Positions 12,445 to 39,363 are shown, counted from the stretch's first letter. The stretch: DNA of 64,000 bases from an uncultured Cellvibrionales bacterium (GCA_963933215.1 CAWVSB010000014.1:1933-65932); one strand, 5' to 3'. Translations and numbers: made by a program. The notes: generated from the letters alone by a model not told the origin.

Positions 12445-12909
12445 TTACATATACATAAACATTAGCTCGTAAACTAACACCGGGCGGTCTTGCCCTGTTA
12501 CATGTACATGCTGCTCCATTGTCACCGTGGTACCTTTCGGTGACTGACTAATATCTTTTACTCGAGAGCGTGATTGCAGTGGAGAATCAACGGGGACTGC
12601 ACCCGTAAAGCGTAATTTATTGGAACCATAATTGAGCATATTATTGAACCCCACTACTTCCCATTGTGGCCGTGTGGTAAGTTTTGGCAGTAGCGCTAAG
12701 GTTAAAAAACCATGTGCAATAGTGGTGCCAAACGGACTGTGTTCCTTGCATCTAGCAGGGTCTGTATGGAGCCAGTAGTCATCACCACTTAATTCGGCGA
12801 ACTGGTCAATCATTGCCTGAGTCACGGTAATCTCAGTGCTCCACTCACCAAACTCATCGCTTACCAATTCTTGCAGGGCGTCTATGTCATCAAATTTGTA
12901 TTGCTTCAT
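12445..12909 (-). CDS. MaoC-family (NodN-like) dehydratase
   Basis: FAELSGDDYWLHTDP, TIAHGFLTL, NYGSNKLRF; start moved to MKQYKF. Confidence 0.9.
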   Translation of the reverse strand: MKQYKFDDIDALQELVSDEFGEWSTEITVTQAMIDQFAELSGDDYWLHTDPARCKEHSPFGTTIAHGFLTLALLPKLTTRPQWEVVGFNNMLNYGSNKLRFTGAVPVDSPLQSRSRVKDISQSPKGTTVTMEQHVHVTGQDRPVLVYELMFMYM

Positions 12910-13142
12910 TAATTTACTCTCTAGAATAACAGCGTAGGCCAATGGTACCGAAAACCACTCTGGCCCAATACTTACCAAACCTTAAAGTTTGTATTGTCAT
13001 ATTATGATCGTTTTCACCACCCAGTTTACGCCTTATTTCATTAACGTACCGTATAGCCATCAGCATTGAGTTTGTCGAGCTCACCTGTATCCTTATGTTC
13101 TGAAATTTTAATAGAATTAAACTGGTAACCAAGGATAAACCT

Positions 13143-14318: not shown

Positions 14319-14375
14319 GTATTGAACGCTTTAAAACTAATATTTTAATTAGACAGCTATTAAAGGAGATAACGA

Positions 14376-15287
14376 ATGGGAGATCTTAGCGGAAAGGTAG
14401 CCATTGTAACTGGTGCGGGCCGAGGCTTAGGTAAAGAAGAGGCAATTCAATTAGCTAAACAAGGCGCCAGCGTTGTCATCAACGATATCAATTTGCCGGA
14501 TGCAGAACAAGCTGCTCACGCCACTGTTGAAGAGATTAAAGCTTTTGGCGGCGAAGCAATTGCGGTGTTCGGCGACTGTGCCAACAGTATTGATTCTGAA
14601 AATTTATTTAAAACTGCCATAGACAAATATGGCGACGTTAACATTATGGTTAACAATGCCGGTTTTTGCCGTGACAAAACTATTTTTGGCATGAGCGATG
14701 ACGAATTTGACTCAGTGGTGCGCGTGCATCTACGCGGTCACTTTATCAATATGCGCAATGCAACGGCTCACTGGCGCAACAAAGCAAAAACCGACGGCAG
14801 TGTTTACGGCCGCTTAATTAGCACATCATCAGAGGCAGCAATTTTTGGCTCAGCTGGTCAACCCAACTATGCGGCGGCTAAAGCAGGTATTTTATCAATG
14901 ACAATGGGCGCTGCTCAGTTAATGATTAAATACGGCGTCACCTGCAACGTGATAATGCCACGGGCATTAACTAACATGACAGCCGAAGGAATTTCTGGCC
15001 AAATGTTCGCTAAACCAGAAGATGGCTTTCATATGTTCAGCGCTGAAAACGTCGCTCCGATTGTGGGTTACTTAGCGTCGCCAGAAGCAGGTCATATTTC
15101 AGGGGAGGCAATGATTGTCTGGGGTAATCAAGTCAATATTATGGAGCAGCCGAAAATATTGCCTGCTCATATTAATCCAGCAGGGGTTGAAAAGTGGTCC
15201 GTAGAAGGCTTACATGAATCACTTTCTAGCCATTACAACGAGAGCTATGTTTCAGTGCAAGACGGCTTCTCAGTTCCACCGCAATAG
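14376..15287 (+). CDS. Short-chain dehydrogenase/reductase (3-oxoacyl/hydroxyacyl-CoA type)
   Basis: TGAGRGLG, NNAG, YAAAK; VRVHLRGHF segment typical of HSD17B4-like SDRs. Confidence 0.9.
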   Translation: MGDLSGKVAIVTGAGRGLGKEEAIQLAKQGASVVINDINLPDAEQAAHATVEEIKAFGGEAIAVFGDCANSIDSENLFKTAIDKYGDVNIMVNNAGFCRDKTIFGMSDDEFDSVVRVHLRGHFINMRNATAHWRNKAKTDGSVYGRLISTSSEAAIFGSAGQPNYAAAKAGILSMTMGAAQLMIKYGVTCNVIMPRALTNMTAEGISGQMFAKPEDGFHMFSAENVAPIVGYLASPEAGHISGEAMIVWGNQVNIMEQPKILPAHINPAGVEKWSVEGLHESLSSHYNESYVSVQDGFSVPPQ

Positions 15288-15421: not shown

Positions 15422-17851
15422 TTAGAACTTTTTGTTTACAGTTAAACCATAAGTTGCTGGCTCACGATTATAAGCACCTTGCTTACCAGACTGCAATACT
15501 GCATCAAAGCTAGTACCCAAATACTCTTCATCCATTATGTTACGTCCCCACAAGGTGATTTCAGTTTGATAGTCTTCCAAGTTCAAACCTAGACGTAAAT
15601 TAACAGTATTATAAGCATCTTGCTTAGTTAGAGGATCGTTAGAAGCATTCAAGAACATATCACCAACATATGAATACTCAACCATGCCATAAGCTAATGT
15701 GGAGTCAGATACGTTAAATTCTTGTCTAACGCCTACGATGAACTTATCTTCAGGGTTGACGGCTAAACGACCACCGGTTCTGTCGCAAAAGTCTGGAGCA
15801 AACTTTTCTTCATCAGTTACAGCCGCGCGACTAGTCACACCATCAGCGTTAAGAATTCGCGCTTGTGGATCAGGAGTTCCGTTACGAAACGGAGTTGTCG
15901 ACCAGCAGTTACCTTTCTCAAACTCATCAAAATCAGCTATTGTTTTCGAGTATGCGAAATTAACGGTTGTCGATTCGGTTGCTTGCCACAGCATATCTAC
16001 CTCAAGACCGTAAGTGTCGGCAGCAGCAGCATTTTGCACGTTAAAGCCACCGCCATCGAAAGAACCAACTTGCTGGTCTTCAATATCAGCTTGATAGACT
16101 GCAACATTCAATCGTAAACCTTGATCAGGAAACTCAGCTTTCATACCTAGTTCGTATGAAGTTGAAGTTTCTGCATCAAAAGATTGATCAAAAGCAGGAT
16201 CTATTCGGTCAGTATTAGTACCACCTGCTTTATAGCCAGTAGTGTATGAACCGTATAACATAATATCGTCAGTCATAAACCAAGAAAGCTTAACAGTACC
16301 AGTCGTTTGATCATCGTCGATTGTTTCGTCAACATTTGAACGTTTTTGGGTCGCTGGAAAATCACTCAAATTAAAGCCAATTTCATTACCAGACTCGAAA
16401 TACTGTGTACTAAGCTCTTTATGCTCATCTGAGTAACGCAGACCAGCGGTAAGAGTTAATGTATCTGTCAAAGCATAATCAGCTTGGCCAAACACAGCCC
16501 AACTTTTGTGATCCTGCTCATTGATATCATAAGCGAATCCATCAGCTGGGAAAACGAACCCGCCTGCTCCGCTAGCTGGAAACAAGCCAGAAAATACACC
16601 AGCAAAAAACTCAGTGTCCTCACCGAAATCTAATCGAGTGAGTGAATCTAACGACTGTTGGAAATAATTAGCCCCAACAACATAGTTAAGCTTTTCACCA
16701 ATGTAAGAAAGTCTGAATTCTTGTGAAAACTGGTCTTGCTCAGCATCACTTGTGTCTTCCAGTCCATCCAAATCGCTAAAATCTGCATCTATGTGATCTG
16801 TAAGATCAAACGATCTGTAAGCTGTAATCGATGTCAGTGTCAAATCGTCAATATTCCAGTCTACCTGAACAGAAAGACCTGAATCTTCTGAAGTAGACTG
16901 AGGTAGGAAACTATGCGCCAGAATATTATCGTATCTGCGGTCTTCAGAAATGAAAGTTCCGCCTTTTCCCTCGAAGTAAGAGTCTGAACCAGGTCCATTA
17001 GCAGTTGCCGGGGTAGGCTGGCCGACTCTCTGATCATCTCTATTATTGTCATAAAGAACAGTAGAGCCACAGCACACTTCATCTAGCTCAGCATAGTCGG
17101 CAATAACATGAATGCTCAAATCTTCATTTGGTGTCCATAAAGCCTGCACTCTAAAACCAAAACGGTCTCTGTCATTCATTTCTTCGCTGCTAGGATTAGA
17201 AGGCGAGATATTATCAATATAGCCATCACGGTCACTAGAGAAACCAGTTAAACGAAATGCTAACTCATCTTCAATAGCACTAATAGAAACTGCGCCACTT
17301 AGATTTAACAGGCCATAGTTACCAACCACTACTTCACCAAAACCACTGCCATCATGATCAGGTTTAACCGTAGTGAACTGAATAGCACCAGACAAAGTGT
17401 TACGACCAAATAGTGTTCCCTGTGGCCCACGTAAAATATCAACCGATTGAATGTCTACCAGCTGGTTAATCATTGAACTTTGACGCGAACGGTATACGCC
17501 ATCAACGTACAAACCTACTGAAGATTCGAAACCAAAGTTATTACCACCGGTACCAATGCCACGAATAGAGAAGTTAGACGTTGTCGCGTTTTGGTTTTGA
17601 TCAACGGTTAAACCTGGAGCGTTAGCCTGCAAGTCAAACATATCAAAAATACCTGAGTCAGATAAAGCTTGCCCAGTGAATGCTTGTACCGAAATGGGTA
17701 CGTCCTGCAAGTTCTGCGCACGCTTTTGCGCAGTTACAATTACTTCTTCTAGCATACCTTGCGCAACAACGTGGCCTGGCAACATGCTAGCGCCAACTAC
17801 GCCAGCACATGCTGCGAAGAAACGAGTACGTTTGAAAGGAATCTTATTCAT
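15422..17851 (-). CDS. TonB-dependent receptor
   Basis: Signal peptide, LEEVIVTAQKR TonB box, ILRGPQGTLFGRN plug motif, C-terminal F. Confidence 0.95.
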   Translation of the reverse strand: MNKIPFKRTRFFAACAGVVGASMLPGHVVAQGMLEEVIVTAQKRAQNLQDVPISVQAFTGQALSDSGIFDMFDLQANAPGLTVDQNQNATTSNFSIRGIGTGGNNFGFESSVGLYVDGVYRSRQSSMINQLVDIQSVDILRGPQGTLFGRNTLSGAIQFTTVKPDHDGSGFGEVVVGNYGLLNLSGAVSISAIEDELAFRLTGFSSDRDGYIDNISPSNPSSEEMNDRDRFGFRVQALWTPNEDLSIHVIADYAELDEVCCGSTVLYDNNRDDQRVGQPTPATANGPGSDSYFEGKGGTFISEDRRYDNILAHSFLPQSTSEDSGLSVQVDWNIDDLTLTSITAYRSFDLTDHIDADFSDLDGLEDTSDAEQDQFSQEFRLSYIGEKLNYVVGANYFQQSLDSLTRLDFGEDTEFFAGVFSGLFPASGAGGFVFPADGFAYDINEQDHKSWAVFGQADYALTDTLTLTAGLRYSDEHKELSTQYFESGNEIGFNLSDFPATQKRSNVDETIDDDQTTGTVKLSWFMTDDIMLYGSYTTGYKAGGTNTDRIDPAFDQSFDAETSTSYELGMKAEFPDQGLRLNVAVYQADIEDQQVGSFDGGGFNVQNAAAADTYGLEVDMLWQATESTTVNFAYSKTIADFDEFEKGNCWSTTPFRNGTPDPQARILNADGVTSRAAVTDEEKFAPDFCDRTGGRLAVNPEDKFIVGVRQEFNVSDSTLAYGMVEYSYVGDMFLNASNDPLTKQDAYNTVNLRLGLNLEDYQTEITLWGRNIMDEEYLGTSFDAVLQSGKQGAYNREPATYGLTVNKKF

Positions 17852-18016: not shown

Positions 18017-18964
18017 TCAGTTAGCGCCAATATCCTCAATAAAGTCAGCGCTTGTAGCGACGATAACGTCAGTTAAATTAGGCGCTAGTATAGCGCCTGC
18101 TATCACATGAGAATGTTGCATTCCGTTGGTATCTATAGCAACTAGCTTTTTGTTGTTACTGCCAAATTTTGTGAAGAAGTTCTCAACAGCTTTAACATTA
18201 ATTACTTCATCTTCTGGTGAATAAAAAATAACAACTGGGATTTTAATCGTGGATAGGTTTAATCGAGAAATATCCTCAACTAATTCCAACATCGGCAACA
18301 TCGACTGAAGCGGAAAAGAATGTGTCCAATATTTTGCATGTAATTTATTTTTTGGCTCCCAGCTATAGTTGTCACCAAATAACCATTTAACAATTTTTAC
18401 TACGTAAGGTAGCCGCAGCAATTTCATATATGGGCTGCGCTCCTTAAAATTAGGCGAAATTAAAATCATTGCATAAATGTCAGAGCTATCTTGCGCGGCA
18501 TATAGTGTTGCCAAAGTCGCACCGGTTGAGACACCAATAACGATAACTTTTTCACCCAGCTGACGACCAATAGCTATAGCCTCAATTGTGTCGTCGAGCA
18601 AATCTTGTTTAGTTATTGCAGCCATTGCCGCGCCATCACGCCCATGTCCAGTCAGCCGTGTATAAAATACGTTAGCCCCTAATTGCTGAGCTATATCGTG
18701 GCTTAATGGATGGGTTTCTTGGCGAGTAGCGCTATAGCCATGCAGGTAGACAATAGCATAGTCGGTTTTAACATTAGGCTTACTATGCCAAACAACAAGC
18801 TTTTCTGTGCCTTCGGTAATACCAGAGATTTTTGCTTCAGCTTGAGCGACTAATAACGCTAAATCTTGATTAACACCATTGGAAAACGCAATATTACTAG
18901 AGCAGCATAGCAATATCGATACGCCTAATGTCAAACAGTTACATAGGTCTCGAACAACTGCCAT
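18017..18964 (-). CDS. Exported alpha/beta hydrolase (lysophospholipase/esterase-like)
   Basis: YLHGYSA, RLTGHG, GVSTG nucleophile elbow, D..H(VIAG); N-terminal hydrophobic segment; start overlaps the SDR stop. Confidence 0.85.
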   Translation of the reverse strand: MAVVRDLCNCLTLGVSILLCCSSNIAFSNGVNQDLALLVAQAEAKISGITEGTEKLVVWHSKPNVKTDYAIVYLHGYSATRQETHPLSHDIAQQLGANVFYTRLTGHGRDGAAMAAITKQDLLDDTIEAIAIGRQLGEKVIVIGVSTGATLATLYAAQDSSDIYAMILISPNFKERSPYMKLLRLPYVVKIVKWLFGDNYSWEPKNKLHAKYWTHSFPLQSMLPMLELVEDISRLNLSTIKIPVVIFYSPEDEVINVKAVENFFTKFGSNNKKLVAIDTNGMQHSHVIAGAILAPNLTDVIVATSADFIEDIGAN

Positions 18965-19785
18965 TAACTATTTCTCTGACGATACTTATCTTTGTTTTTT
19001 CTACCCTGTTCATACAACTTAGGCCGCAACTTTCGTCTCAATGACGGAAACAAATAACTGAGTGTCGTCAATTTTCCGCTGAACGCTGGCATAGATATCT
19101 CCACCGTGTCTTCCGTTGCCAATTCAATAATAGCGTCGGCAACTTGCTTGGCTGTGCTCATCGGCTGAGAAAATACAATATCTTCGACTAAATCTATCTC
19201 ATCCATAATAAAACCAGTATCAATTGGCCCCGGCGAAACAATACCAATTTTAATGCCGCTATTTTGTATTTCATCAGCGAGGGCATAAGTAAATGCTCTA
19301 AGGCCTGCCTTAGTGGCGCAATAAGTGGACGCGCCTTGCAATGGCGCTCTACCCGCTAGCGAGCCAACATTAACTATTGCGCCACCGCCCACTTTACGCA
19401 AATAAGGGATAACCGCACTAGACAACACTAATGGTGAGCGCAGATTGACATCAACCATTGCCGCAATGTCAGTAGGGGTTTTAGTTTCAACGTTACCTCG
19501 CGCATGCATACCAGCGTTATTGATCAACACATCAATGCGCCCAAATTCAGCTTCAGCTTTTGTCATAAGATCAATACAAGCTTTAGTATCAGCAACATCC
19601 ATCGCCACAGTTAACACGTCAGTTTTTGCACGCAACTCAGTAGCTGCGATTTTTAAGTCGACTTCACCACGTGCCACTAAAACAAGATTAGCCTTTAAAT
19701 CTGCAAACGCCTCGGCACAGGCTCGCCCTACGCCTGCTGAAGCGCCAGTGATAATTACGGTTTTACCTTCGAATATATTAGTCAC
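18964..19785 (-). CDS. Short-chain dehydrogenase/reductase
   Basis: TGASAGVG, NNAG, YCATK. Confidence 0.9.
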   Translation of the reverse strand: MTNIFEGKTVIITGASAGVGRACAEAFADLKANLVLVARGEVDLKIAATELRAKTDVLTVAMDVADTKACIDLMTKAEAEFGRIDVLINNAGMHARGNVETKTPTDIAAMVDVNLRSPLVLSSAVIPYLRKVGGGAIVNVGSLAGRAPLQGASTYCATKAGLRAFTYALADEIQNSGIKIGIVSPGPIDTGFIMDEIDLVEDIVFSQPMSTAKQVADAIIELATEDTVEISMPAFSGKLTTLSYLFPSLRRKLRPKLYEQGRKNKDKYRQRNS

Positions 19786-19989
19786 TATTTGATCTCTCGC
19801 TTAATTAAAATATTAATAAAGAATCTAACTCTAACTACCCGACAGTTACAAGTGATTATAGGCAGCTAATACTTTGTCTTAATGTTGGTTACTGTTGACA
19901 TTTACAATTACCCCATGAATAGCTTTAATAAGACCTAGATTAGGAATAAAATATGATAAATTCGAATACTAATAATAATAGGGTTTAAA

Positions 19990-21747
19990 ATGAACTATCG
20001 CGCAGCTGCTGCTACGGTCTTACTGATCATCTATTCATTTCACCTTAATGCACTCACTATTATTGATGAGCAAGGCCAAGCACTAGCGCGGGTTATGGTG
20101 ACCCAGACTGCTATGCCTGTTGGTGAAAGTGACCTATCTGATGGTGGCTATGCACCAGCTGGCGTTACTAATAATAGCGCAGTTGCCATTACCCGCTTTA
20201 CCAATATCGCCGGCCAAGTCAACTTTAATGACGTTGTTAACGAGGTGAAATATCGCGCCCGTGGACAGGGCTATGTAGACCAGTATTTTGTGGCATTGCC
20301 AGAAAAACTTACAATGAAAAAGATGAGTAAGCAGCAGTATATTGCTAGCTTTCCCTCTAACGTTTGGTTGTCGCAAATGAAATTTGAAGGCGACCAAGAG
20401 CTGAAAAAGATCTTTCAACTTAACTGCGCATTTTGCCATCAACAAGCATCACCGTTTATGCGTAATGAGCGCACCACAGAGCAATGGATTACCGTATTTG
20501 ATCGAATGAATACATTTGGTTCTCGCCTGCCAGAAGATGAGTTCGATCGAGTCGCCAACATCCTTCAAACTGAATATCGCTATTTACGTGAAAACTCTGA
20601 CACTGTGCCAGAACCGAAGCAATGGGAAGATCATTTATCAGCTGTGGAATTCACCGAATGGCCTATTGGCGACGGCTTTTCACAAATGCATGATTTTTTA
20701 CTGCATCCCAATGGCCTAATTTATGTGGGTGACAATCTACACGATAGAATTTATGAAATTAACCCGGAATCTGGCGATTATAGCGTATATAAAGTACCCC
20801 ATACCGATGACGACAGGCTGGGTGGCATCTTAGGTAACCGCTTTACCACCTTTCCGAAAATGGAAAACTATTACGGCGTTCATTCGTTTTCACTGTCGCC
20901 AAAAGACGGTAATATTTTTATAACGCCGTCAATGCAACAAGCGTTGCTAGAGTTTAACCCCAAGACTAAAGAATTTACCGTACACCGAATGGAAGAAGGC
21001 TACTATCCGCACACTATTCGAAGTGATGCTAATGATGATGTGTGGTTTACTTTGGCGCTGTCATCACAAGTTGCCAAATTCGACCGAATAACCGAAGAAT
21101 TTACCCTCTACGACTTACCCGCTCGAAACCTTAAGGAGTGGCTTATTATAAAGTCGCTACCGCTAGTATTTTGGTTTGATCCAGAAAATCGTCCTACGCC
21201 ATCTGGTGACAAAGAGGGCAACGGTCTACCAATGCCTTATGGAATAGATGTATCACCGGATGGCAGTATTTGGGTAACCCGATTATATGCCAACGACTTA
21301 GCACATATTGACCCAAAGACAGGCCAAGTGACTATGGTCGACTTCCCCTATAGCGGCCCACGTCGATTGCGAGTAGATGCTGCCAACAATGTTTGGATAG
21401 TCGCCTTCCAAGATTCATTGTTAGTCAAATATGAGCCTAAAACTCAGACATTTACTAAATTTGAGCTTCCCGTTGTTAATGAGATTCCTTATGCATTAAA
21501 TGTCGATCGGGCGCGCAATACTGTATGGGTTAATGGCAATCAGTCAGACACTATAATGGCATTTGACATAAGTAGTGAAAACTGGAAAACCTATCCCATG
21601 CCTCGCCAGCGTTTCTTCACCCGTGATATCGAAATCTCTGAAGAAGATGGCGCAATTTACACAACCAATTCACACTTCCCTACTTGGCAATCGGAAGGTG
21701 GTGTACCGACCTTGCTCAGAATTGAACCTATAGCAACAATGCAATAG
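19990..21747 (+). CDS. Exported c-type cytochrome fused to a virginiamycin-B-lyase-like beta-propeller
   Basis: Signal peptide; CAFCH heme motif; RTTEQWITVFDRM helix; propeller repeats YYPHTIRSD, PYGIDVSPDGSIW, GPRRLRVDAANNVW, PYALNVD. Confidence 0.75.
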   Translation: MNYRAAAATVLLIIYSFHLNALTIIDEQGQALARVMVTQTAMPVGESDLSDGGYAPAGVTNNSAVAITRFTNIAGQVNFNDVVNEVKYRARGQGYVDQYFVALPEKLTMKKMSKQQYIASFPSNVWLSQMKFEGDQELKKIFQLNCAFCHQQASPFMRNERTTEQWITVFDRMNTFGSRLPEDEFDRVANILQTEYRYLRENSDTVPEPKQWEDHLSAVEFTEWPIGDGFSQMHDFLLHPNGLIYVGDNLHDRIYEINPESGDYSVYKVPHTDDDRLGGILGNRFTTFPKMENYYGVHSFSLSPKDGNIFITPSMQQALLEFNPKTKEFTVHRMEEGYYPHTIRSDANDDVWFTLALSSQVAKFDRITEEFTLYDLPARNLKEWLIIKSLPLVFWFDPENRPTPSGDKEGNGLPMPYGIDVSPDGSIWVTRLYANDLAHIDPKTGQVTMVDFPYSGPRRLRVDAANNVWIVAFQDSLLVKYEPKTQTFTKFELPVVNEIPYALNVDRARNTVWVNGNQSDTIMAFDISSENWKTYPMPRQRFFTRDIEISEEDGAIYTTNSHFPTWQSEGGVPTLLRIEPIATMQ

Positions 21748-21759
21748 GGAAATCAGCTG

Positions 21760-22785
21760 ATGATAAAGATATTAATAGGCTTACTAGCAACTGTATTTAT
21801 GCAGCTATTTTTATTGCATAACGCAGCAGCAAATACTCGCTCGGTTGAAGCAGTTCAAGAAATTGGTATTGCAGTTAATAATATCCATAAAGCGACACGG
21901 CAATACCAGCAAATTATGGGTGTCAGTAAATGGGAGTATCAAGATTTATATAATGCAGACGGCGACAAAAAATACCCTTCGGTAAGACTTGCTAGAGCAC
22001 AGTTCGGTGATAAATGTATCGCCCTAATACAGCCTCTAGCAGGCTCATCACTGGTAAAAAGCCATTTAGAAAAACATGGCCCCAGTATTTTTCATATTGG
22101 CATAAAAGGTGAGAATGATGCGCTAGCAGCTTATCCATCACACTCGGTGACTGATGGCATAGGCGCCAAGGCAAAGTGGATTGACACCTATGCAGATTTT
22201 GGCGTCAACATATTTTCTTATGACCCCAACACCGCGCTCACAAGCTGGGGCTCTACAGGCAACAACAAAACACCAACAATAACTGACGATAATCAACTAT
22301 TTCAGTTAGGCATAGTCAGCCGTGATTTAGCTAAAACTGCCATGAGTTATTTTGAACAACTAGGCATTGGTCCTTGGCTGGTGGTCGACTTCAAAGGTGA
22401 ACATATTACTAACGCACAATATCTTGGCGCTAAAGGTGCTGTAAAACCTCACATCAAAGTTGCCTATGCCATGTGGGGCAACTTGCAACTTGAATTGTTA
22501 ATGCCCATTAGTGGCCCTAGCCCCCATCGAGACTTTTTAATTACTAGAGGCTTTGGCGCACATCATTTAAGTTATGGCCCAATTAAAAATCATGATGCAG
22601 TTGTCAGGGCGTTAACTGAAAAAGGCATTGCCATCCAAATGCAATCAGACAACGGTGGCGAAGGCAGAACAGCAACTTATATGGACACCCTAGACCAACT
22701 CGGTTTTGTGCTCGAACTTACCCGCCCGTTTAAGGGCGCTGGCACTCTGCCTATCGCCGGCACGATTCCAGCAAGGGTGCAATAG
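21760..22785 (+). CDS. Tandem VOC (glyoxalase/methylmalonyl-CoA epimerase-like) protein with N-terminal signal peptide
   Basis: QEIGIAV...HGPSIFHIG and QLGIV...LELLMP...GAHHL...LELT; hydrophobic leader ending in AAA. Confidence 0.75.
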   Translation: MIKILIGLLATVFMQLFLLHNAAANTRSVEAVQEIGIAVNNIHKATRQYQQIMGVSKWEYQDLYNADGDKKYPSVRLARAQFGDKCIALIQPLAGSSLVKSHLEKHGPSIFHIGIKGENDALAAYPSHSVTDGIGAKAKWIDTYADFGVNIFSYDPNTALTSWGSTGNNKTPTITDDNQLFQLGIVSRDLAKTAMSYFEQLGIGPWLVVDFKGEHITNAQYLGAKGAVKPHIKVAYAMWGNLQLELLMPISGPSPHRDFLITRGFGAHHLSYGPIKNHDAVVRALTEKGIAIQMQSDNGGEGRTATYMDTLDQLGFVLELTRPFKGAGTLPIAGTIPARVQ

Positions 22786-24689
22786 TGAAACTGTTAATCA
22801 CAACAGTTAGCGTCGTACTGACCATTATGACTAATCTTGTATTGGCTGACGATTGGACTTACTACGGCGGTGACCAAGGCGGTAAACATTATTCCAGCGC
22901 CAAACAAATAACCAAAACTAACGTAGAAAACTTAGACGTCGTCTGGGTATATCAGAGTGGCGATATGAAAAAATATGGCGAGGCAATGGCGCAGACCTCA
23001 ACTCAGGCCACGCCTATTTTACTGCCAGCTGCAGCCGGTGAATCCTTGGTATATTGCACGCCTTACAGCCGAGTAATAGCGCTAGACCCGGCCACTGGCG
23101 CCCAGCGCTGGGACTACGATCCTGAAATAAGTCTCGATGGCGACAGACCGTTTCGTTGCCGCGGCGTCAGCTATGCAGAAGACATCCAAATCGATATTGG
23201 AACCCACTGCCGCCACCAAATATACGTCGCTACTCACGACCGAACAATTCGCGCTATCGATTCACACACCGGTAAAGTTTGTGCAAGTTTTGGCAACAAC
23301 GGCATCGCCAACCTATACGGTAAAGAAGGTTTTCCAGCGGGGGATGTTAGCAATTCGGCCACTCCAGTTATTGCCAATAATATTTTGGTAACAGGCTCAT
23401 CAGTTATCGACTTTTCCAAATCAACTAGCCCCCGCGGCATTGTCACCGCTGTAGATACTCACAGCGGCGCAACCTTATGGACTTTTGATCCACTAATAGG
23501 AAATCAACAAAGTGGCAGCGCTAATGTGTGGTCACAGATGTCTGTCGATGCAGAAAATAATTTAGTCTTTTTGCCTACTAGTGCGCCTTCGCCTGACTAC
23601 TATGGCGCTGACCGCGTTGGTGATAATTTATATGCTAATAGCCTAGTAGCACTAGATTTAACCACCGGCAAAGTACAATGGTACTTTCAGCATGTGCGTC
23701 ATGACCTGTGGGATTACGACACCCCGGCCCAACCGATATTATTTGAATGGAAAAAAGAGGGTAAAACTATTCCTGCAGTTGCTCAGCTAACCAAGCAAGG
23801 TTTTGTGTTTGTCTTTAATCGCCTCACTGGCGAGTCGATGTGGGAGATTACCGAGCAACCGACACCGCCATCAATGATAGACGGTGAATTAACAGCTCGC
23901 TGGCAACCAAAACCCATCGCACCGCCGAGCTTGCTAAATAATTTTCTCACCGCAAACCAAGCTTGGGGCTTAACGCCAATAGATAAAGCTGACTGCGTTA
24001 GGCAAATTGAAGGGTTAAACAATCTTGGTTTATTTACTCCTATCAATGAAAACTTATCGATGATGTTTCCTGGTAGTTTAGGCGGCCCGAACTGGGGTGG
24101 CGGCGCTTACAATGAAGCCACTGGAATCCTGATTACCAACGTTAACAATGTACCCTTTACCGGCAAATTAATCCCGACCGTTGCTGGCAGCGAAGCGACC
24201 AAGTCGGACCACCCTGCCGCCGGCCACCGCATGCAAGTGACTATGCACGGTACGCCATACACGATAGAAATAGGCAGCTTGCAGTCTTTTCTTGGCATCC
24301 CCTGCAATAAGCCACCCTGGGGTAAATTAGTTGCGGTAGATCTAATCAATGGCGTTATCAATTGGGAGGCACCGCTTGGCTCGGTGCATGAAATGGGGCC
24401 TGTAACCGCGCCATTTCAAATTAACTGGGGCACGCCTAACTTAGGTGGCGGCATCGCCACGGCTGGCGATTTATTTTTTATCGGCGCTACTATGGACCGG
24501 AAAATACGCGCCTTTGATGTTAACAGCGGCACAGTCTTATGGGATTACACACTGCCAAACGATGCCACTGCAACGCCCATGACCTACACCTTTAAAGGTC
24601 GCCAATATGTGGTTATTAACGCTGGCGGTCACCATATGTATAACCGTGGCTATGGCGATTATCTGTACGCCTTCGCACTCCCTGAGTAA
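22785..24689 (+). CDS. PQQ-dependent dehydrogenase (glucose/quinate/shikimate-like family), soluble exported form
   Basis: DWTYYGG, CRGVSY, HDLWDYD, GGPNWGG, PCNKPPWG, ATPMTY, GRQYVVINAGGH; VLA signal cleavage site; GTG start overlaps the previous stop. Confidence 0.88.
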   Translation: MKLLITTVSVVLTIMTNLVLADDWTYYGGDQGGKHYSSAKQITKTNVENLDVVWVYQSGDMKKYGEAMAQTSTQATPILLPAAAGESLVYCTPYSRVIALDPATGAQRWDYDPEISLDGDRPFRCRGVSYAEDIQIDIGTHCRHQIYVATHDRTIRAIDSHTGKVCASFGNNGIANLYGKEGFPAGDVSNSATPVIANNILVTGSSVIDFSKSTSPRGIVTAVDTHSGATLWTFDPLIGNQQSGSANVWSQMSVDAENNLVFLPTSAPSPDYYGADRVGDNLYANSLVALDLTTGKVQWYFQHVRHDLWDYDTPAQPILFEWKKEGKTIPAVAQLTKQGFVFVFNRLTGESMWEITEQPTPPSMIDGELTARWQPKPIAPPSLLNNFLTANQAWGLTPIDKADCVRQIEGLNNLGLFTPINENLSMMFPGSLGGPNWGGGAYNEATGILITNVNNVPFTGKLIPTVAGSEATKSDHPAAGHRMQVTMHGTPYTIEIGSLQSFLGIPCNKPPWGKLVAVDLINGVINWEAPLGSVHEMGPVTAPFQINWGTPNLGGGIATAGDLFFIGATMDRKIRAFDVNSGTVLWDYTLPNDATATPMTYTFKGRQYVVINAGGHHMYNRGYGDYLYAFALPE

Positions 24690-24700
24690 AATTATAAATC

Positions 24701-26653
24701 ATGAAAAAGCTCGTTATTTTTATTGTCTTGATTGGTATTACCGCTTTGGTAATCAGCACAGAACGCCTGCCAGTGAAACAATGGTTGATGACTAATGGAG
24801 AAAATTTAGCCATAGAATATGCCGATGTTTTACCGCTAGACTTTATCGGTGAAAAACTATTCGACAAAAATTGTGCCCAATGCCATGACAATCCGGCAAT
24901 GAAGGCACCTACTCGTGAAGCATTATCACGTAACTCTATAGAAAGCATAATGATCGCCCTAGAATTTGGCAAAATGCAGCCCATGGCGACACATTTAAGC
25001 AAGCAAGAGCGTGGCTTAATCGCTAAATATTTGGCCAGCAAAGACACTGCTAGCTATCAGTGGCTAGAAACAAATAGTTGTACTCAGGCCACATCCACTG
25101 AGTCAACTCAATGGGTTAGCAATTGGGGCCTGGGTATTGATAATAAGCGTCACATACCTGATGGACTAAGCAAAATCAACAGAGCTAATGTAGGTAGCCT
25201 AAGCCTGCAGTGGAGCATCGCTTTTCCTAAGGTAACCGACATGCGTTCGCAGCCGGTTATTATCGGCGACACCATGTATATAGGTGACAAAGCCGGCAAA
25301 CTTTATGCGCTGGATAGAAAAACTGGCTGCGTTCGCAATCACACTAAAATTTTCAGTGGTATTCGCTCATCAATAACTCTGGCTACATTAGCTAGTGGCA
25401 GACAATTGCTTATATTTGCCAACAATTTGGCAACTGTATTTGCGGTTGACCCTGATAGCTTTAAAGTTGTTTGGCAGCAACCAGTAAAAATCAGCGACTA
25501 CTCAGTTGTAACCGGTTCAATCAGTTATTTTGACGACAAATTATTTGTACCAATTTCTTCCTTTGAGGTAGCTGCATCAGGTAGCCCTGAACATGAATGC
25601 TGTACTTCACATGGGGCGGTTGTATCACTGAATGCTAATAATGGTGATGAGCGCTGGATTTGGCATGCGACAGAAGATGCAACCCGGCAAGCCAATAACG
25701 CCAACGGCGCGGTTGTTTACGGCCCCTCTGGCGCAGCAGTATGGACTACCCCAGCAATAGATCTAAAACGTAATCGAATTTACTTTGGTACCGCCGAAAA
25801 TTTAACCCACCCGGCCACCAATACCAGTGACACTATTGTGGCTCTTGATCTTGATAGCGGCGCAGAAGCATGGAAGTTTCAAGCGATTGCCGCTGACGTA
25901 TGGAATGCTGCTTGCCACAATGATGGCCCTAACTGCCCGGAAAACCCCGGTGGTGATTTTGATTTTGGGGCGTCGGTTATCATCACCCAAAATTCAGCGG
26001 GGCAAGACGTACTTCTCGCGGGTCAAAAATCTGGCGAGGTATTTGCCCTTAACCCAGACACCCAAAACCCAAAAGGTGAAGTATTGTGGCGCAATCGCAT
26101 CAGTCAAGGCACAACCAATGGTGGCATTCATTGGGGAATGACAGTTGCCGGTAACACTGTATTTGTGCCAATGGCAGATCCAGAAAGAGAACGTGACGGC
26201 TACACTCCCAAACCAGGCTTATATGCATTGAGTATTGATTCTGGTGAGATTATTTGGCAACAGCCAGTCAAGCGTGGCTGCGATTTTGACTACGCTAACA
26301 CCCCTCTTATCGGCTTAGAACATACCCGTGCGCCCAAACCAACTAACCCTGAAGCGCAATATGAATGTTCTTTCTACTATGGTTTATCAGCGGCTGCGAC
26401 TTCAACTTCGCAGTTGATATTCACCGCTGGTTTAGATGGCAAGATTCGAGCATATAACAATGCCAATGGTGAAGTGTTATGGCAAACCAATACCGCTGTC
26501 GAGCATAAAACAGTCAATGGTATTGCAGGGCATGGTGGCGCTATCGATGTTGCGGGGCAATCGATTGCTGGGGAATGGCTCTATGTATTATCTGGCTATA
26601 GCATGTTTGGGCAATTGCCAGGCAATGTGCTACTGGCGTATAAAATTGACTAA
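24701..26653 (+). CDS. Quinohemoprotein resembling polyvinyl-alcohol dehydrogenase (cytochrome c + PQQ propeller)
   Basis: CAQCH heme motif and MQPM; vicinal ECCTSHG, GAAVWTTPAID, DFDFGAS, AGQKSG, GGIHWG, PGNVLLAY. Confidence 0.85.
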   Translation: MKKLVIFIVLIGITALVISTERLPVKQWLMTNGENLAIEYADVLPLDFIGEKLFDKNCAQCHDNPAMKAPTREALSRNSIESIMIALEFGKMQPMATHLSKQERGLIAKYLASKDTASYQWLETNSCTQATSTESTQWVSNWGLGIDNKRHIPDGLSKINRANVGSLSLQWSIAFPKVTDMRSQPVIIGDTMYIGDKAGKLYALDRKTGCVRNHTKIFSGIRSSITLATLASGRQLLIFANNLATVFAVDPDSFKVVWQQPVKISDYSVVTGSISYFDDKLFVPISSFEVAASGSPEHECCTSHGAVVSLNANNGDERWIWHATEDATRQANNANGAVVYGPSGAAVWTTPAIDLKRNRIYFGTAENLTHPATNTSDTIVALDLDSGAEAWKFQAIAADVWNAACHNDGPNCPENPGGDFDFGASVIITQNSAGQDVLLAGQKSGEVFALNPDTQNPKGEVLWRNRISQGTTNGGIHWGMTVAGNTVFVPMADPERERDGYTPKPGLYALSIDSGEIIWQQPVKRGCDFDYANTPLIGLEHTRAPKPTNPEAQYECSFYYGLSAAATSTSQLIFTAGLDGKIRAYNNANGEVLWQTNTAVEHKTVNGIAGHGGAIDVAGQSIAGEWLYVLSGYSMFGQLPGNVLLAYKID

Positions 26654-26709: not shown

Positions 26710-27948
26710 CTAGATAGACCAATAGCCTGATGTGTTATTTTGATAACCAAGACTTAGATAAGCAGCGTCCACTAAACTTTGCCCTCTGTGATTGAGTAAC
26801 ACCCCAGGCCCCATTAAATTCATTGTGTAAGCAAACGCTAGCTTATTATCAGGGTCGGCAAATACAGTGCTACCCCCTGCCCCAACATGTCCAAAAGCCC
26901 GATCGCCGATAATAAAGCTATCAGTATTGCCAGCCTTGCAAGCGCGATTATCCATAGACTTCATAAATCCGAGCGCAAACCTAGTAGGTACTAATAAAGT
27001 AGCGTCAAGCATGGTCGCCGTTGAGACTGTACTCATGCGCTGAATCGACTGCTGCGAAAAATATTGTCTATCACCGACTACTCCACCATTAGCTAGCGGT
27101 GAAAACAACTTTGCCATTGCCCGTGCATTTGATACTCCACCCGCACCGCCTATTTCAGCACGCAATGTGGCAGCACTATTAGCATTGTTGCCGCCAGAAT
27201 TTGATAACGCTAAATGAGAAATAGAAGTTGGGTCGTTGATAATAGCAGTCATGAAATCGGACATAGGCTGGGACTGATCGATTGGCCCCATGGCAACTGG
27301 CGCAACCCTATTAGCCTTATCTTCAGGCAAGCCTATCCAAAAGTCAGCCTGCAATGGCTGCGCCAACTCCTGATCAAAAAACTGTCCTAAAGACATACCT
27401 GATACTCGCCGAATTAACTCACCGACAGTCCAACCAAAGCTAATCAAGTGATAGCCAGTGCGTGTCCCTGGCAGCCAAAATGGTTCTTCTTGCTCAAGAC
27501 GTTTAACCATATAGTCCCAATCATCATAGCCGTCCGGTTTTATCGGCTGTCTAAATGCTGGTAACGCTGAAGAATGATTGAGCATCATTTCAACGGTAAT
27601 CTTATCTTTACCATGTTGTGCAAACTCAGGCCAATAAGTAGCAACCGGCTCTTTGAGCTTTAACTGTCCGCGCTCAATAAGTAAATGGGCACATAGGGCA
27701 GTCATTGCTTTAGTACAAGAAAACACTACTGCCACGGTATCTTCTTGCCAGCGCTGGATTTTCTCAACTGAGCTAAAACCGCCCCATAAATCAACAACGG
27801 TCTGCTCGCCTATGCGCACACAACAGCTTGCACCCAGTTCATTACGCAAAGAGAAATTTTGGATAAAAGAGTCTGCAACTGCTTGAAACTCAGGCTCTAC
27901 GAAGCCACTAATATGAGCGCCTGCCACTTCTTCATAAATTTTTTTCAT
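26710..27948 (-). CDS. Serine hydrolase, beta-lactamase-like (family VIII / EstA-type esterase)
   Basis: FSCTK (SxxK), PGTRTGYH, FGHVGAGGS. Confidence 0.9.
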   Translation of the reverse strand: MKKIYEEVAGAHISGFVEPEFQAVADSFIQNFSLRNELGASCCVRIGEQTVVDLWGGFSSVEKIQRWQEDTVAVVFSCTKAMTALCAHLLIERGQLKLKEPVATYWPEFAQHGKDKITVEMMLNHSSALPAFRQPIKPDGYDDWDYMVKRLEQEEPFWLPGTRTGYHLISFGWTVGELIRRVSGMSLGQFFDQELAQPLQADFWIGLPEDKANRVAPVAMGPIDQSQPMSDFMTAIINDPTSISHLALSNSGGNNANSAATLRAEIGGAGGVSNARAMAKLFSPLANGGVVGDRQYFSQQSIQRMSTVSTATMLDATLLVPTRFALGFMKSMDNRACKAGNTDSFIIGDRAFGHVGAGGSTVFADPDNKLAFAYTMNLMGPGVLLNHRGQSLVDAAYLSLGYQNNTSGYWSI

Positions 27949-27984: not shown

Positions 27985-30060
27985 CTAAACCTTTGCTTTG
28001 GTTTTGAGAAACTCTGTTAATTGAGTTATAGACATAGGGCTGCCATAGAGGAAGCCCTGCACTGAGTCACAGCCGCAGGCTTTGACAAAATCATTCTGGG
28101 CTTGGGTTTCAACACCTTCAGCAACCACCTTAAGCTTCAGACCATGTCCCATCCGTACAATCGTCTCTACCAAAGTATCGTCATTACTGCTGATGCCAAT
28201 ATCCATAATAAACGACTGATCTATTTTTAACGTATTTAACGGCAGCTCTTTGAGTCGCGATAAAGACGAGTAAGCTTTACCAAAGTCATCAATCGAAATC
28301 TCTACACCCAACTCTCTCACCGAATTTAACACTTTCTCTAAACCTAAAGATTCGGCGCCAAATAATGTCTCTGAGACCTCTAACTCCAAGCGGTTTGCAG
28401 GTAACCCTGAATCATCCAAAATAGTGCCAATAGTTTTGGCTAAGTCTTCTCTCACAAATTGTCCAGGTGATAAATTAACAGATAAACCTAAACATTCAGC
28501 GCTCTCGCCAGACAAAGCCATCACATCAGCACAGGCAACTCCCATCACCCACTCATCAATCATTGGTGTTAAGCCACACTCATCGGCAACAGGAATAAAC
28601 TCACTAGGTAAAATTTCTCCTTCGTCAATATCAAACCAACGCACTAACGCCTCAACGCCTTCGACTGCAAGGGTATGGACGTTTACCCGCGGCTGATAAT
28701 AGACTTCGAACTTTATGTGTAGCAAAGCATGGCGTAGCTTAGTTTCCAAGCTTAATCGCCGTACTGCTTTTTCGTTTAAATCGGGACTGAAAAACGAATA
28801 TTGATTACGTCCCAAGTCTTTGGAAAGATACATTGCCGTGTCAGCATTTTTTACAATTTCGTCGGCCGTATCGCCATCTTTAGGAAAAATACTTATGCCA
28901 ATGCTGGTAGTAATATGCAAACCATAGCCCGCGACAGTAAACGGCTGATCGATTTCTTCGATAAGCTTTTCCGCTTGCTGAACAATATATTCATCTGATT
29001 CAGGATCGACAATCAGTAGTGCGAACTCATCGCCTCCTAAGCGGGTTAAAAGGTCGTTGCCAGAAACTGAGCGGGCGAATCTTTTGCCAACCTGTTGCAG
29101 CAGTTTATCACCGACAATATGACCAAGCGTGTCATTAATAACTTTAAATCTGTCTAGATCAAGAAATAGTACGGCTAACTTCCCGCCAGACATTTCAAGC
29201 TGCTCTAAACTGTAGGCCAGCTGCTGATCGAAAGTAGTACGATTAGCTAAGCCTGTTAGCCCATCAAAAAAAACCTGATATTCAAGCTGCTTAGTTAGCT
29301 CAGTCAATTCGATGGTGCGTTCAGTAACTTTTTCTTCTAGCTCTTCAGTTGCTTGCTGGAGCTTTATATCTCGTAACTGAACTTCTCCGACCATGTCATT
29401 GAAATCATCAACTAATAATCCAATTTCATCGTTTGATGTTTTATCAGCACGTAAATAATAATTTTGACTGCTAGTAATATTGCGTGCGGTATTTGCAAGT
29501 TTGATAATTGGTGTCGTAACGACCCTCTGTAAAAAATTAGAAAGCAGAGCAACTATTAGTAATGCCAACAAAAACAGTCCGGATGCTGTTAACAACCTTG
29601 CGGGCAAATCGACTCGCCATTGATTTAACTCGGAGACAGCTACTATCTGACCGACTTTTTCTCCATCAAATAAAATAGGTAAAGAGACATAAATTAAATC
29701 ACCAAAATCACCGCTAATAAACTTTGGTAAAAATATATCAAAATCGCTGTCACTGCGCTTAAACATGGCAAATAGATTGTTATTTACGTCATATAAAGCA
29801 GCCGCCACAATATCATACTCACTCTTTAAGCTAGACAAAGTGTTTTCACCTGCTTCAACATCATTAAACATCAGAGCAGCAACCGAGTTCGCACCAACAA
29901 TTCTACTTTGAACCTCCAACCGCTGAAAAGCTAAGTCGCGCGACCGATACCAATCATTAACTAAATAACCGAACGTTGACAGCAGTAAAGCAATACCGCT
30001 GCACAATACCATTACGATCATTAAGGTGCGGCGAATAGATGGCGGATTTGAATGGCTCAT
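27985..30060 (-). CDS. Membrane sensor-HAMP-GGDEF-EAL protein (diguanylate cyclase/phosphodiesterase)
   Basis: Two TM helices around a periplasmic domain, HAMP (DEIGLLVDDFN), RLGGDEF, EALVRW, IDDFG, LKIDQSF, AEGVE, QGF. Confidence 0.93.
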   Translation of the reverse strand: MSHSNPPSIRRTLMIVMVLCSGIALLLSTFGYLVNDWYRSRDLAFQRLEVQSRIVGANSVAALMFNDVEAGENTLSSLKSEYDIVAAALYDVNNNLFAMFKRSDSDFDIFLPKFISGDFGDLIYVSLPILFDGEKVGQIVAVSELNQWRVDLPARLLTASGLFLLALLIVALLSNFLQRVVTTPIIKLANTARNITSSQNYYLRADKTSNDEIGLLVDDFNDMVGEVQLRDIKLQQATEELEEKVTERTIELTELTKQLEYQVFFDGLTGLANRTTFDQQLAYSLEQLEMSGGKLAVLFLDLDRFKVINDTLGHIVGDKLLQQVGKRFARSVSGNDLLTRLGGDEFALLIVDPESDEYIVQQAEKLIEEIDQPFTVAGYGLHITTSIGISIFPKDGDTADEIVKNADTAMYLSKDLGRNQYSFFSPDLNEKAVRRLSLETKLRHALLHIKFEVYYQPRVNVHTLAVEGVEALVRWFDIDEGEILPSEFIPVADECGLTPMIDEWVMGVACADVMALSGESAECLGLSVNLSPGQFVREDLAKTIGTILDDSGLPANRLELEVSETLFGAESLGLEKVLNSVRELGVEISIDDFGKAYSSLSRLKELPLNTLKIDQSFIMDIGISSNDDTLVETIVRMGHGLKLKVVAEGVETQAQNDFVKACGCDSVQGFLYGSPMSITQLTEFLKTKAKV

Positions 30061-30620
30061 CGGTCATCCGTGTAAACGTTTCTAGCCAACTTAAGCAACT
30101 TAGAGCTCATCTTGAGCTTAGCCGCCTCAACCTGTAACAGGTTAATATCAAAAACAATACTGCCTCCCTTGCGATTCAGCGATACCATTGCCAATGATGA
30201 CTCGATAGAAAATTCATTAAATGCAGTATTATCAACAATTATCAACGTAGGCTGTTGAGCTATGTTCGGATAACTCTCGGTAAACTTTGAGAATTTTTCA
30301 CCAGTAATAAATATTATTTGGCAACTTTTTACCGTTTCAACGTCTAGCCTATAGTTTACAGCCAAAGTCTGTCCTGCTATCTCTTGGCCTACTATCGAAT
30401 CCGTAGCAAGCCCAAGAAACTTATTTTCAAACAAACACAGTGTCATTTGGTCAGACTCTGCCGTTGCATCAACAGGCCAAATAATGAAACGAGCAAGATT
30501 GAGAGCAAATGCCGCCTTAATTTTATTGGAGCGATCATCTTCACTATACTGCGCGCTAACTGGCAGCGTTACAATTAGCAACAGTAAAGTAAAATTAATA
30601 ATGAAAATACGTCTTAACAT
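30057..30620 (-). CDS. YfiR-family (DUF4154) periplasmic protein
   Basis: IKAAFALNLARFIIWP, conserved Cys pair, FDINL, MSSKLLKLA; start moved to ATG 30620, which overlaps the TBDR stop. Confidence 0.88.
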   Translation of the reverse strand: MLRRIFIINFTLLLLIVTLPVSAQYSEDDRSNKIKAAFALNLARFIIWPVDATAESDQMTLCLFENKFLGLATDSIVGQEIAGQTLAVNYRLDVETVKSCQIIFITGEKFSKFTESYPNIAQQPTLIIVDNTAFNEFSIESSLAMVSLNRKGGSIVFDINLLQVEAAKLKMSSKLLKLARNVYTDDR

Positions 30621-37263: not shown

Positions 37264-37277
37264 ACTATTTGCCTCAG

Positions 37278-39339: not shown

Positions 39340-39363
39340 TAGAAAATATCCACAGGAATAACT

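Follow-up and report, generated by a model that had tools for sequence, protein, structure and literature searches.

A conserved gene module of a cytochrome c-type, Vgb-like propeller protein and two PQQ-type dehydrogenases in Cellvibrionales

The present analysis concerns four co-directional genes on the plus strand of a 64,000-nt stretch of DNA from an uncultured Cellvibrionales bacterium (GCA_963933215.1, CAWVSB010000014.1:1933-65932; the whole stretch is called the window). Their open reading frames (ORFs) occupy positions 19990-26653 and are designated G1 to G4. Two of the products belong to the pyrroloquinoline quinone (PQQ) type of dehydrogenases.

19990..21747, plus strand: G1, putatively exported protein of 585 amino acids with a cytochrome c domain and a Vgb-like propeller (Pfam Vgb_lyase, AlphaFold model, alignment of relatives)
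21760..22785, plus strand: G2, putatively exported two-module VOC protein of 341 amino acids (Glyoxalase_4)
22785..24689, plus strand: G3, putatively exported soluble PQQ-type dehydrogenase of 634 amino acids (PF01011, TIGR03074)
24701..26653, plus strand: G4, quinohaemoprotein-type protein of 650 amino acids with a hydrophobic N-terminus (PQQ, PQQ_2, Cytochrome_CBB3)

According to the ORF coordinates the intergenic gaps amount to 12 bp (G1/G2), -1 bp (G2/G3) and 11 bp (G3/G4), and the GTG start codon of G3 shares one base with the TAG stop codon of G2. The best 12-residue Kyte-Doolittle mean within the first 40 residues is hydrophobic in all four proteins (2.18-3.12), compared with 0.80 in a neighbouring esterase and 1.47 in a neighbouring short-chain dehydrogenase/reductase (SDR). 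We read the N-termini of G1 to G4 as signal or anchor sequences and the proteins as putatively exported, because of this hydrophobicity and because the attachment of haem c needs the periplasm. One CxxCH motif each is present in G1 (CAFCH, residue 146) and G4 (CAQCH, residue 58), and the motif check found none in 14 other proteins of the neighbourhood. A preliminary description of this DNA had claimed tight coupling of the four genes, export or anchor sequences on all their products, two CxxCH haem sites and two PQQ-type propellers. The ORF calls, the hydrophobic N-termini and the combined result of the motif check (G1, G4) and Pfam (G3, G4) agree with it on each of these points.

The distribution of the genes in other genomes documents that G1-(G2)-G3-G4 is a real, conserved module. 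A pattern scan for G1 in species-representative genomes returned eight loci. The closest relative (L004) contains all four genes within the same flanks and a G1 that is 93% identical, while G1-G3-G4, the triad, is present in a member of the SAR92 clade (L006) and in Haliea alexandrii LZ-16-2 (L011). One locus holds G1-G4 only (L005), and the other four of the eight (L007-L010) G1 alone. The G4 homologue in the metagenome-assembled genome of L005 (L005:11685-13553) has one in-frame stop, which points either to a decayed gene or to faulty assembly. Outside the order G1 is rare: the same scan located it in records of Alteromonadaceae and Endozoicomonadaceae, and no match at E <= 1e-40 was obtained in a class sample of 400 genomes of other gammaproteobacteria.

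Within an even sample of 301 genomes from the order of the window, G1 is matched at E <= 1e-20 in 39 and by a near-full-length orthologue in 20, and 18 orthologue loci plus two paralogue loci were fetched for comparison. G3 adjoins G1 in all nine loci with a G1 of 56-68% identity (L012-L020), and G4 is located in the same locus in eight of them; in the ninth (L012) the contig ends first and G4 is found on another contig. Two loci of one family exhibit the rearranged order G4-TBDR-G1-G3 (L016:7064-15109 and L017:4570-12626), in which a TonB-dependent receptor (TBDR) gene lies inside the module. All 12 sampled genomes that reach 56% identity in G1 contain the three genes together (including the genomes G000 [that of the window], G089 and G115), and the four-gene order recurs in a second divergent lineage, so that the co-occurrence expected from the preliminary description is borne out. 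Distant G1 paralogues (30-32% identity) also stand beside G3-type genes, namely in two of 12 paralogue loci (L030, L035).

This recurrence in other genomes places the four-gene arrangement beyond chance. A mere neighbourhood without common function might account for the variable flanks, for the lack of G2 in most triads and for G3- and G4-like genes that occur alone, and yet order and orientation are kept, with short gaps and in differing surroundings, over G1 identities of 56-93%, and G2 always lies between G1 and G3. We therefore give this explanation next to no credence.

The predicted architecture of G1 comprises a signal-like segment (residues ~1-22), a beta-sandwich (~23-110), a class I-type cytochrome c domain (~112-218) and a seven-bladed propeller (~214-585). 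The haem motif occupies residues 146-150 and M173 is the candidate distal ligand; the Pfam cytochrome model stays below its cut-off (16.6 versus 27 bits). Pfam assigns the propeller to Vgb_lyase (PF24684; 70.3 bits, cut-off 50), and SGL (PF08450) reaches 31.7 bits, with one short stretch (415-454) and none passing alone. An AlphaFold (AF2) model built from 28 relatives has a mean predicted local distance difference test (pLDDT) score of 87.7, and its propeller superimposes on Vgb (2z2n; VIA-align) with a Z-score of 36.3 and a root-mean-square deviation of 1.9 A over 290 of 293 residues at 18% identity. The next structural matches are YncE (Z 33.5) and generic WD40 propellers (30-32). In the alignment of the 28 sequences, which extends down to 33% identity, C146, C149, H150, M173, H234, H298, Y417, R458, Y501 and R545 show no variation, and at least 90% of the sequences keep H341. 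H234, H298, H341, Y417, R458, Y501 and R545 all occupy the second position of a blade motif. The family is sizeable, with 1383 proteins at E <= 1e-10 among 8000 candidates scored.

G3 matches PF01011 (PQQ) over the whole profile (1-595 of 595) with 662 bits. Its match to TIGR03074 (597.1 bits, E 3.9e-179, cut-off 832.65) covers profile positions 152-783 only, and a signal-like N-terminus takes the place of the N-terminal membrane domain (positions 1-151). By these profiles G3 is a member of the glucose/quinate/shikimate dehydrogenase family minus its membrane domain: it shares the propeller with the membrane-bound enzymes (mGDH, QDH) and lacks their ubiquinone-reducing membrane part. Since it contains neither a haem nor a membrane domain, G3 would need an external or soluble acceptor. 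A paralogue of G3 is encoded elsewhere in the genome of the window (G000:C3:86772-88604).

G4 consists of a haem c domain (CAQCH 58-62) followed by an eight-bladed PQQ-type propeller (~130-650), as indicated by the Pfam matches PQQ (86.4 bits), PQQ_2 (78.7 bits) and Cytochrome_CBB3 (29.0 bits, cut-off 27, residues 50-111). This order, with the haem c domain at the N-terminus, is that of polyvinyl alcohol dehydrogenase (PVADH). Among 15 aligned sequences C58, C61, H62 and M92 of the haem domain and E289, C300-C301, N367, D419 and D421 of the propeller are invariant; the metal/PQQ ligand Glu is kept (E289), and the ligand Asn lies within one residue of N367. TIGR03075 is matched with 89 bits (cut-off 480). 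A lanthanide-type site was considered and dropped: if D421 were catalytic, the residue at +2 would be Gly423 and not Asp, in an uncertain alignment. In sequence comparisons with the PDB, G3 finds its closest relatives (E 5.8e-30), and G4 some of its closest, among the type II quinohaemoprotein alcohol dehydrogenases (1KV9, 1KB0, 1YIQ), which also combine a PQQ propeller with a c-type haem in the periplasm. These enzymes carry the haem domain at the C-terminal end of a single chain, whereas it is N-terminal in G4 or resides on a separate propeller protein (G1).

G2 is placed in the VOC superfamily by profile and model. Glyoxalase_4 (PF13669) scores 74.8 bits in two stretches, and the PDB sequence 3gm5 is matched with E 2e-14. 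The AF2 model (pLDDT 89.1) most closely resembles the two-domain fold of 4-hydroxyphenylpyruvate dioxygenase (HPPD)/hydroxymandelate synthase, with a template modelling (TM) score of 0.58. All 22 sequences aligned share E245, H256, H268, H269, H278, D279 and E319, and the metal-type His/Glu set (E245, H268, H269, E319) is confined to the C-terminal of the two predicted modules. The methylmalonyl-CoA epimerase model TIGR03081 is matched below its cut-off (60.8 versus 114.95 bits); G2 differs from such epimerase-like proteins in its putative export and in its tiny family, of which about 5.8 billion proteins yielded only 34 at E <= 1e-5.

A full-length G2 is present in only two of the 301 genomes of the order, G000 and G089. 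A metagenome scan with the G2 alignment retrieved 11 loci, three of which (L045, L048, L049) show G1-G2-G3-G4 in the same order as the window, with identities of 56-58% (G1), 36-44% (G2), 47-48% (G3) and 49-52% (G4). Two further loci contain G1-G2-G3 up to the contig end (L046, L047), one has G2-G3 from the contig start (L053), and in another a PQQ gene remnant of 152 aa lies downstream of G2 (L050). G2 homologues of at least 36% identity thus lie beside a G3-type gene in seven of seven loci, one of them with the truncated remnant, while four remoter homologues (30-32%) are located among CoA-metabolism or aldo-keto-reductase genes. The remnant itself (L050:476-934) matches only both ends of the PQQ propeller profile and appears to be an internally deleted G3-type gene. 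In a quick maximum-likelihood tree of G1 the two four-gene clades are separate (support of at least 99 each) and the clade of the window is nested among triad-only sequences. A recent insertion of G2 had been considered and was abandoned when the metagenome scan located the gene in the same slot in a second lineage. Given the separation of the two clades, G2 is most simply read as an ancient, optional member with repeated losses; transfer into the same slot is a possible, less simple alternative.

The preliminary description had proposed to look for pqq and ccm genes in the genome, and the outcome differs between the two sets. No match to pqqC or pqqB was found in the genome of the window (98.8% complete), and pqqE is represented by a 45-bit match only (cut-off 381), whereas CcmE is present (120.9 bits). 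pqqC is likewise absent from ten of ten other carriers of G1 or the triad; the search itself works, because it detected the gene in the three genomes of one genus of the order that served as positive control (406-411 bits). Three or more PQQ-type dehydrogenases are nevertheless encoded in the genome, among them G3, G4 and the G3 paralogue. Because the biosynthesis genes are absent, the carriers presumably must obtain PQQ from outside by scavenging, and these marine lineages look like PQQ auxotrophs. The best match to a PqqU-type importer in the genome reaches 147 bits (cut-off 1200), and the TBDR flanking the module 37 bits in the same model. With CxxCH, a conserved Met, an export-type N-terminus and Ccm, both G1 and G4 have the sequence attributes of class I c-type cytochromes.

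Near-identical DNA is found in ice, seawater and marine-sediment metagenomes of 20 studies. Among the contigs of the metatranscriptome library X20, seven pieces of 151-204 nt map to G1, G2 and G4 and one to the end of the TBDR gene; G3 has no piece and no piece spans two genes, a lack of cover that proves nothing. This is a weak sign of transcription of G1, G2 and G4, with DNA carry-over as a possible source.

Taken together, we tentatively propose, at a confidence a little short of an even chance, that G1-(G2)-G3-G4 constitutes one conserved periplasmic operon for the oxidation and further processing of a hydroxylated substrate. The substrate would be a sugar, cyclitol, polyol or other secondary-alcohol compound that is imported or periplasmic. 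G3 and G4, loaded with scavenged PQQ, would oxidise hydroxyl groups, and the electrons would leave via c-type haem (the domain of G4 and the cytochrome domain of G1) towards the respiratory chain, with the latter domain as acceptor for G3. The G1 propeller, together with G2 where present, would then convert the resulting carbonyl compound through ring opening, elimination or isomerisation. This proposal explains why G1 is the hub of the variants G1-G3-G4, G1-G2-G3-G4, G1-G4 and G1 paralogue plus G3, why a cytochrome is fused to a non-redox fold, and why G2 has a constant place between G1 and G3. Systems in which a periplasmic PQQ dehydrogenase has its own dedicated cytochrome are familiar. The transfer of electrons from periplasmic PQQ enzymes to cytochrome c is described for the Sphingopyxis pva operon in the available part of PMC11644497, and the fusion of a redox domain to a propeller lactonase has a precedent in a six-bladed SGL lactonase of Deinococcus (PMC12362111, as far as the accessible text goes). 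A predicted complex of G3 (residues 22-634) with the G1 cytochrome domain (112-218) scored 0.00 in both runs, which were made with no controls, and counts neither for nor against the proposal.

Of the preliminary description, the conserved unit of four genes stands, and the "oxidise, isomerise, eliminate" route is a coherent chemistry that we infer. Systems for oxidise-then-eliminate glycoside cleavage use NAD- or FAD-dependent oxidoreductases and TIM-barrel-type lyases. The likeness to such systems (glucoside 3-dehydrogenase type; the broad-specificity cluster of Bacteroides) is one of logic only, and no protein family is shared with the operon: oxidation of a hydroxyl group activates the neighbouring proton for elimination or isomerisation (according to the accessible portions of bioRxiv 10.1101/2024.03.25.586180 and, for the systems as such, PMC8121099).

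Several observations weigh against the proposal. Relatives of G3 and G4 at orthologue level (46-50% identity) also occur unlinked to G1. G4 may be catalytically atypical, since in the alignment the usual vicinal Cys-Cys is replaced by Ser-Ser, with the other invariant pair at C300-C301, and the invariant Asn402 faces the Asp behind the Trp of "DxWDY", a motif of alcohol dehydrogenases of known structure; the invariant motif D419-F-D421-F-G, downstream of an insert of 16 residues, may contain the genuine counterpart of the catalytic Asp. The comparison of flanks revealed no substrate-specific neighbour that is conserved beside the triads. Neither promoter-like sites (28 versus 21.8 +/- 4.7 in shuffles) nor terminator-like sites (9 versus 10.2 +/- 3.2) are in excess between positions 17800 and 28200, and the two scans say nothing about operon structure.

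The remaining objections concern G1. In nine of nine loci with a G1 of 42-52% identity, G3 and G4 are absent within 9 kb on either side. A search with PF01011 of five genomes with G1 only, which are 97-99% complete, yielded no match of the size of a PQQ dehydrogenase; four have matches of 21-25 bits in frames of 384-405 amino acids, which we read as BamB, and one has none. The haem motif of G1 is intact in these five genomes, and three of them (L024, L027, L028) contribute orthologues to the alignment in which CxxCH and Met173 are invariant, so that in some organisms G1 operates in the absence of any PQQ dehydrogenase and its haem has a role independent of G3 and G4. In L007-L010 and L027 the G1 orthologues (44-48% identity) are part of a second conserved operon (e.g. 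L009:6978-13844) with the order AraC-type regulator, BASS-type symporter, NAD-dependent epimerase/3beta-hydroxysteroid dehydrogenase (3beta-HSD)-like gene, G1, major facilitator superfamily (MFS) transporter and sometimes an SDR; this operon is found in genomes devoid of PQQ dehydrogenases. The regulator is nearest to the GliR/QhpR models, under their cut-offs, and a divergent gene for a regulator of the same kind precedes the four-gene clusters in L048 and L049.

The comparison with Vgb points in the same direction. Vgb is a cytoplasmic resistance enzyme in which Glu268 and His228 have catalytic roles. G1 shares with the Staphylococcus aureus enzyme (2Z2N, 2Z2P, 2QC5) the seven-bladed propeller and the Pfam match at 15-19% identity, to which it adds a predicted signal peptide, the beta-sandwich and the cytochrome c domain. 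Structure 2z2p is the H270A variant of Vgb, an inactive mutant according to its title. In a HMMER alignment to 2qc5 the place of His270 is taken by Tyr501 of G1 and that of Glu268 by Ile499, and His228 corresponds to Leu460 by this alignment or to Arg458 by the blade motif, a pairing to be read with the caveat that repeat proteins can align out of register. The residues facing the catalytic set of Vgb are invariant or nearly invariant non-His residues in the relatives of G1, the ring residues differ from those of Vgb at equivalent places in the alignment, and the NCBIfam models for Vgb(A) and Vgb(B) score 25.8 and 31.4 bits (cut-offs of 600). Judged by these alignments, G1 is Vgb-like in fold only and its active site does not match; the case for the Vgb-type C-O lyase that the preliminary description had seen in it is weakened by the invariant Tyr at the place of the catalytic His270.

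The independence of G1 from the PQQ enzymes and the loss of the Vgb catalytic residues favour the main rival explanation, according to which G1 itself is a redox enzyme coupled to haem c. The His/Tyr/Arg ring at the mouth of the propeller would bind a cofactor, metallic or other, with which a periplasmic substrate is oxidised or reduced, and the haem domain would serve as electron exit or entry, in the manner of cytochrome cd1, so that the operon would encode three oxidoreductases acting in series or in parallel instead of dehydrogenases and a lyase. The conservation of CxxCH and Met173 in 28 of 28 sequences, including the orthologues from three genomes without a detected PQQ dehydrogenase, the separate conserved operon of the G1-only loci and the ring of seven residues, six of them invariant and unlike those of Vgb, are in line with this idea. 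The metal site is putative, however, and we know of no redox cofactor site in the Vgb fold; among solved structures the nearest relative is a lyase that depends on Mg, and no cofactor-maturation gene is conserved nearby in the loci compared. We regard a redox function of G1 as possible and rather unlikely.

A lactonase function has also to be considered. G3 would oxidise aldoses at C1, G1 would be an SGL/SMP-30-like lactonase fused to the acceptor cytochrome, and G4 would oxidise a further position. This would suit the family placement of G3 by the TIGR03074 profile, the SGL (PF08450) match that accompanies Vgb_lyase in G1 and in all 120 homologues among the matches listed, the deposition of 2qc5 as "streptogramin B lactonase" and the SGL lactonase-redox fusion of Deinococcus as given in the accessible text of PMC12362111. 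It accords poorly with the shortness of the SGL match (415-454), with a fold comparison that favours the seven-bladed Vgb (Z 36) over other propellers, with the G1-only genomes that lack a PQQ sugar dehydrogenase and with the absence of a conserved sugar transporter or kinase beside the triad. Sugar oxidation followed by lactone hydrolysis is in our view decidedly improbable. G1 may thus act as a lyase or lactonase or as a redox enzyme.

The genes that surround the module bear on a third alternative. The following features adjoin it:

15422..17851, minus strand: TBDR (Plug and TonB_dep_Rec_b-barrel)
18017..18964, minus strand: alpha/beta hydrolase with a hydrophobic N-terminus (Hydrolase_4, 71.4 bits)
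18964..19785, minus strand: SDR, cytoplasmic, divergent from G1 (adh_short, 173.9 bits)
19786..19989, no strand assigned: presumed promoter region, a divergent intergenic region of 204 bp between the SDR gene (minus) and G1 (plus), with a sigma-70-like match at 19925-19952 (plus strand, 9 of 12)
26710..27948, minus strand: beta-lactamase-fold (family VIII type) esterase, convergent with G4 (Beta-lactamase, 229.7 bits)

A true operon for polyvinyl alcohol (PVA), or a similar 1,3-polyol polymer, would be the equivalent of pvaA/pvaB(oph)/cytC. PvaA (EC 1.1.2.6) from the pva operons of Pseudomonas sp. VM15C and Sphingopyxis sp. 113P3 is, like G4, periplasmic with a haem c before a PQQ-type propeller, and the operon includes a second haem c carrier (in the available part of PMC11644497). 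Homologues of G4 with 60-84% identity bear the automatic JGI label "polyvinyl alcohol dehydrogenase (cytochrome)", as does one NCBI record, and a serine hydrolase is encoded nearby. These labels are automatic, however, and the likeness of G4 to PvaA consists of domain order and labels; the Cys-Cys pair is replaced and the catalytic Asp ambiguous. G4-type proteins are also common in the order (66 of 301 genomes, often in several copies). The hydrolase, the sole putatively exported one in the vicinity, most resembles monoacylglycerol lipases (7e04, E 2.2e-10), is encoded on the opposite strand and, among the loci examined, has a copy (71% identical) in L004 only. None of its 18 PDB matches at E <= 0.01 is an oxidised-PVA hydrolase (OPH), a sequence search that can miss a distant relative. 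G1 and G3 are not known from pva operons, and the DNA was found in ice, seawater and marine-sediment metagenomes. As no OPH-type hydrolase was found, we do not regard the module as a PVA operon and give that explanation very little credence; of the PVA parallel drawn in the preliminary description, nothing is left beyond the domain order of G4.

The flanks themselves vary. The set of SDR, hydrolase, TBDR and esterase genes is kept only in the closest relative L004, and the other triads are surrounded by unrelated housekeeping genes. A divergent SDR adjoins G1 relatives in the window, L004, L021-L023, L029, L036 and L041 (with 26-32% identity to the SDR of the window in the latter six loci), and no SDR match was found in the triad loci L012-L020; the SDR is thus a recurrent neighbour of G1-family genes outside the conserved triad. 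TBDRs of 26-31% identity are located near G1 relatives in L009, L016, L017, L029, L035 and L047, immediately upstream of G1 in L035 and L047, and esterase relatives of 24-26% identity adjoin G1 paralogues in L037 and L043. The esterase is devoid of an export signal and matches a LipL-type model with 206 bits (cut-off 650). The four flanking genes named in the preliminary description are accordingly all present in the window, but their conservation is limited to L004.

The remainder of the window contains several further gene sets. A three-gene set on the minus strand (27985-32605) encodes a TBDR (TOL_0244-like model, 114 bits, under the cut-off), a YfiR-like periplasmic protein (TOL_0243-like, 72.8 bits, under the cut-off) and a protein of the domain order CHASE8-HAMP-GGDEF-EAL; the N-terminus of the latter scores 162 versus 194 bits in the domain model "sensor, YfiR-like protein-associated". 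It resembles a YfiBNR-like module of cyclic diguanylate (c-di-GMP) signalling in which the TBDR replaces YfiB, and is missing in the otherwise syntenic L004, where an EamA gene directly follows the esterase. Positions 12445-15287 and 34744-52053 harbour many genes of steroid-side-chain-type beta-oxidation. One product exceeds the cut-off of the steroid 3-ketoacyl-CoA thiolase equivalog (586.6 versus 515 bits); others are MaoC and ChsH2-like hydratases, an Ltp-type thiolase, five acyl-CoA dehydrogenases, one acyl-CoA ligase and a regulator of the TetR type. These genes were considered as a clue to the substrate and set aside, as the flanks are not conserved outside the genus. A complete, ordinary leucine/isovalerate (liu-type) cluster is located at 55174-61694 (plus strand), with genes for an acyl-CoA dehydrogenase, a carboxyltransferase, an enoyl-CoA hydratase, a biotin carboxylase subunit and an HMG-CoA lyase, and the sole Pfam match of a 1110-aa ORF at 2662-5994 (plus strand) is one LVIVD repeat (49.4 bits).

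The combination of a putatively haem-bearing Vgb-fold propeller, a G3 without membrane domain, a PVADH-type G4 and an optional exported VOC protein is new in the sense that it is not described in the searchable literature, in agreement with the preliminary description, which had recognised no known pathway in the four genes. The searches, whose coverage excluded most subscription journals and all supplements, found no description of a module of Vgb-like and PQQ proteins or of the G1 family, no paper joining PVADH with the names of the marine clades and none of relevance on the natural substrate of PVADH; PMC8371827 makes no mention of PQQ. The G1 family is entirely uncharacterised, and G1, the hub protein of the module, is possibly novel.

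G1 may represent a new enzyme class, a c-type cytochrome joined to a Vgb-fold propeller whose His3/Tyr2/Arg2 ring would hold a metal or derived cofactor, and would form with the two PQQ dehydrogenases, and in some lineages with the periplasmic VOC protein, a new extracytoplasmic "oxidise, then cleave" route of abundant PQQ-auxotrophic marine gammaproteobacteria. This is speculative and, in our estimation, unlikely. If true, Halieaceae, the SAR92 clade and their kin would in this way degrade a polyhydroxylated natural compound and pass its electrons directly to the respiratory chain. The lineages of the carriers, frequent in coastal seawater, in sea ice and in sediments, appear unable to make PQQ, and the module therefore bears on the natural substrates of PVADH-like enzymes, on PQQ as a shared public good in the sea and on the function of a cytochrome-fused Vgb-like propeller. 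Cultured carriers such as Haliea alexandrii and Halioglobus species make the question directly testable.

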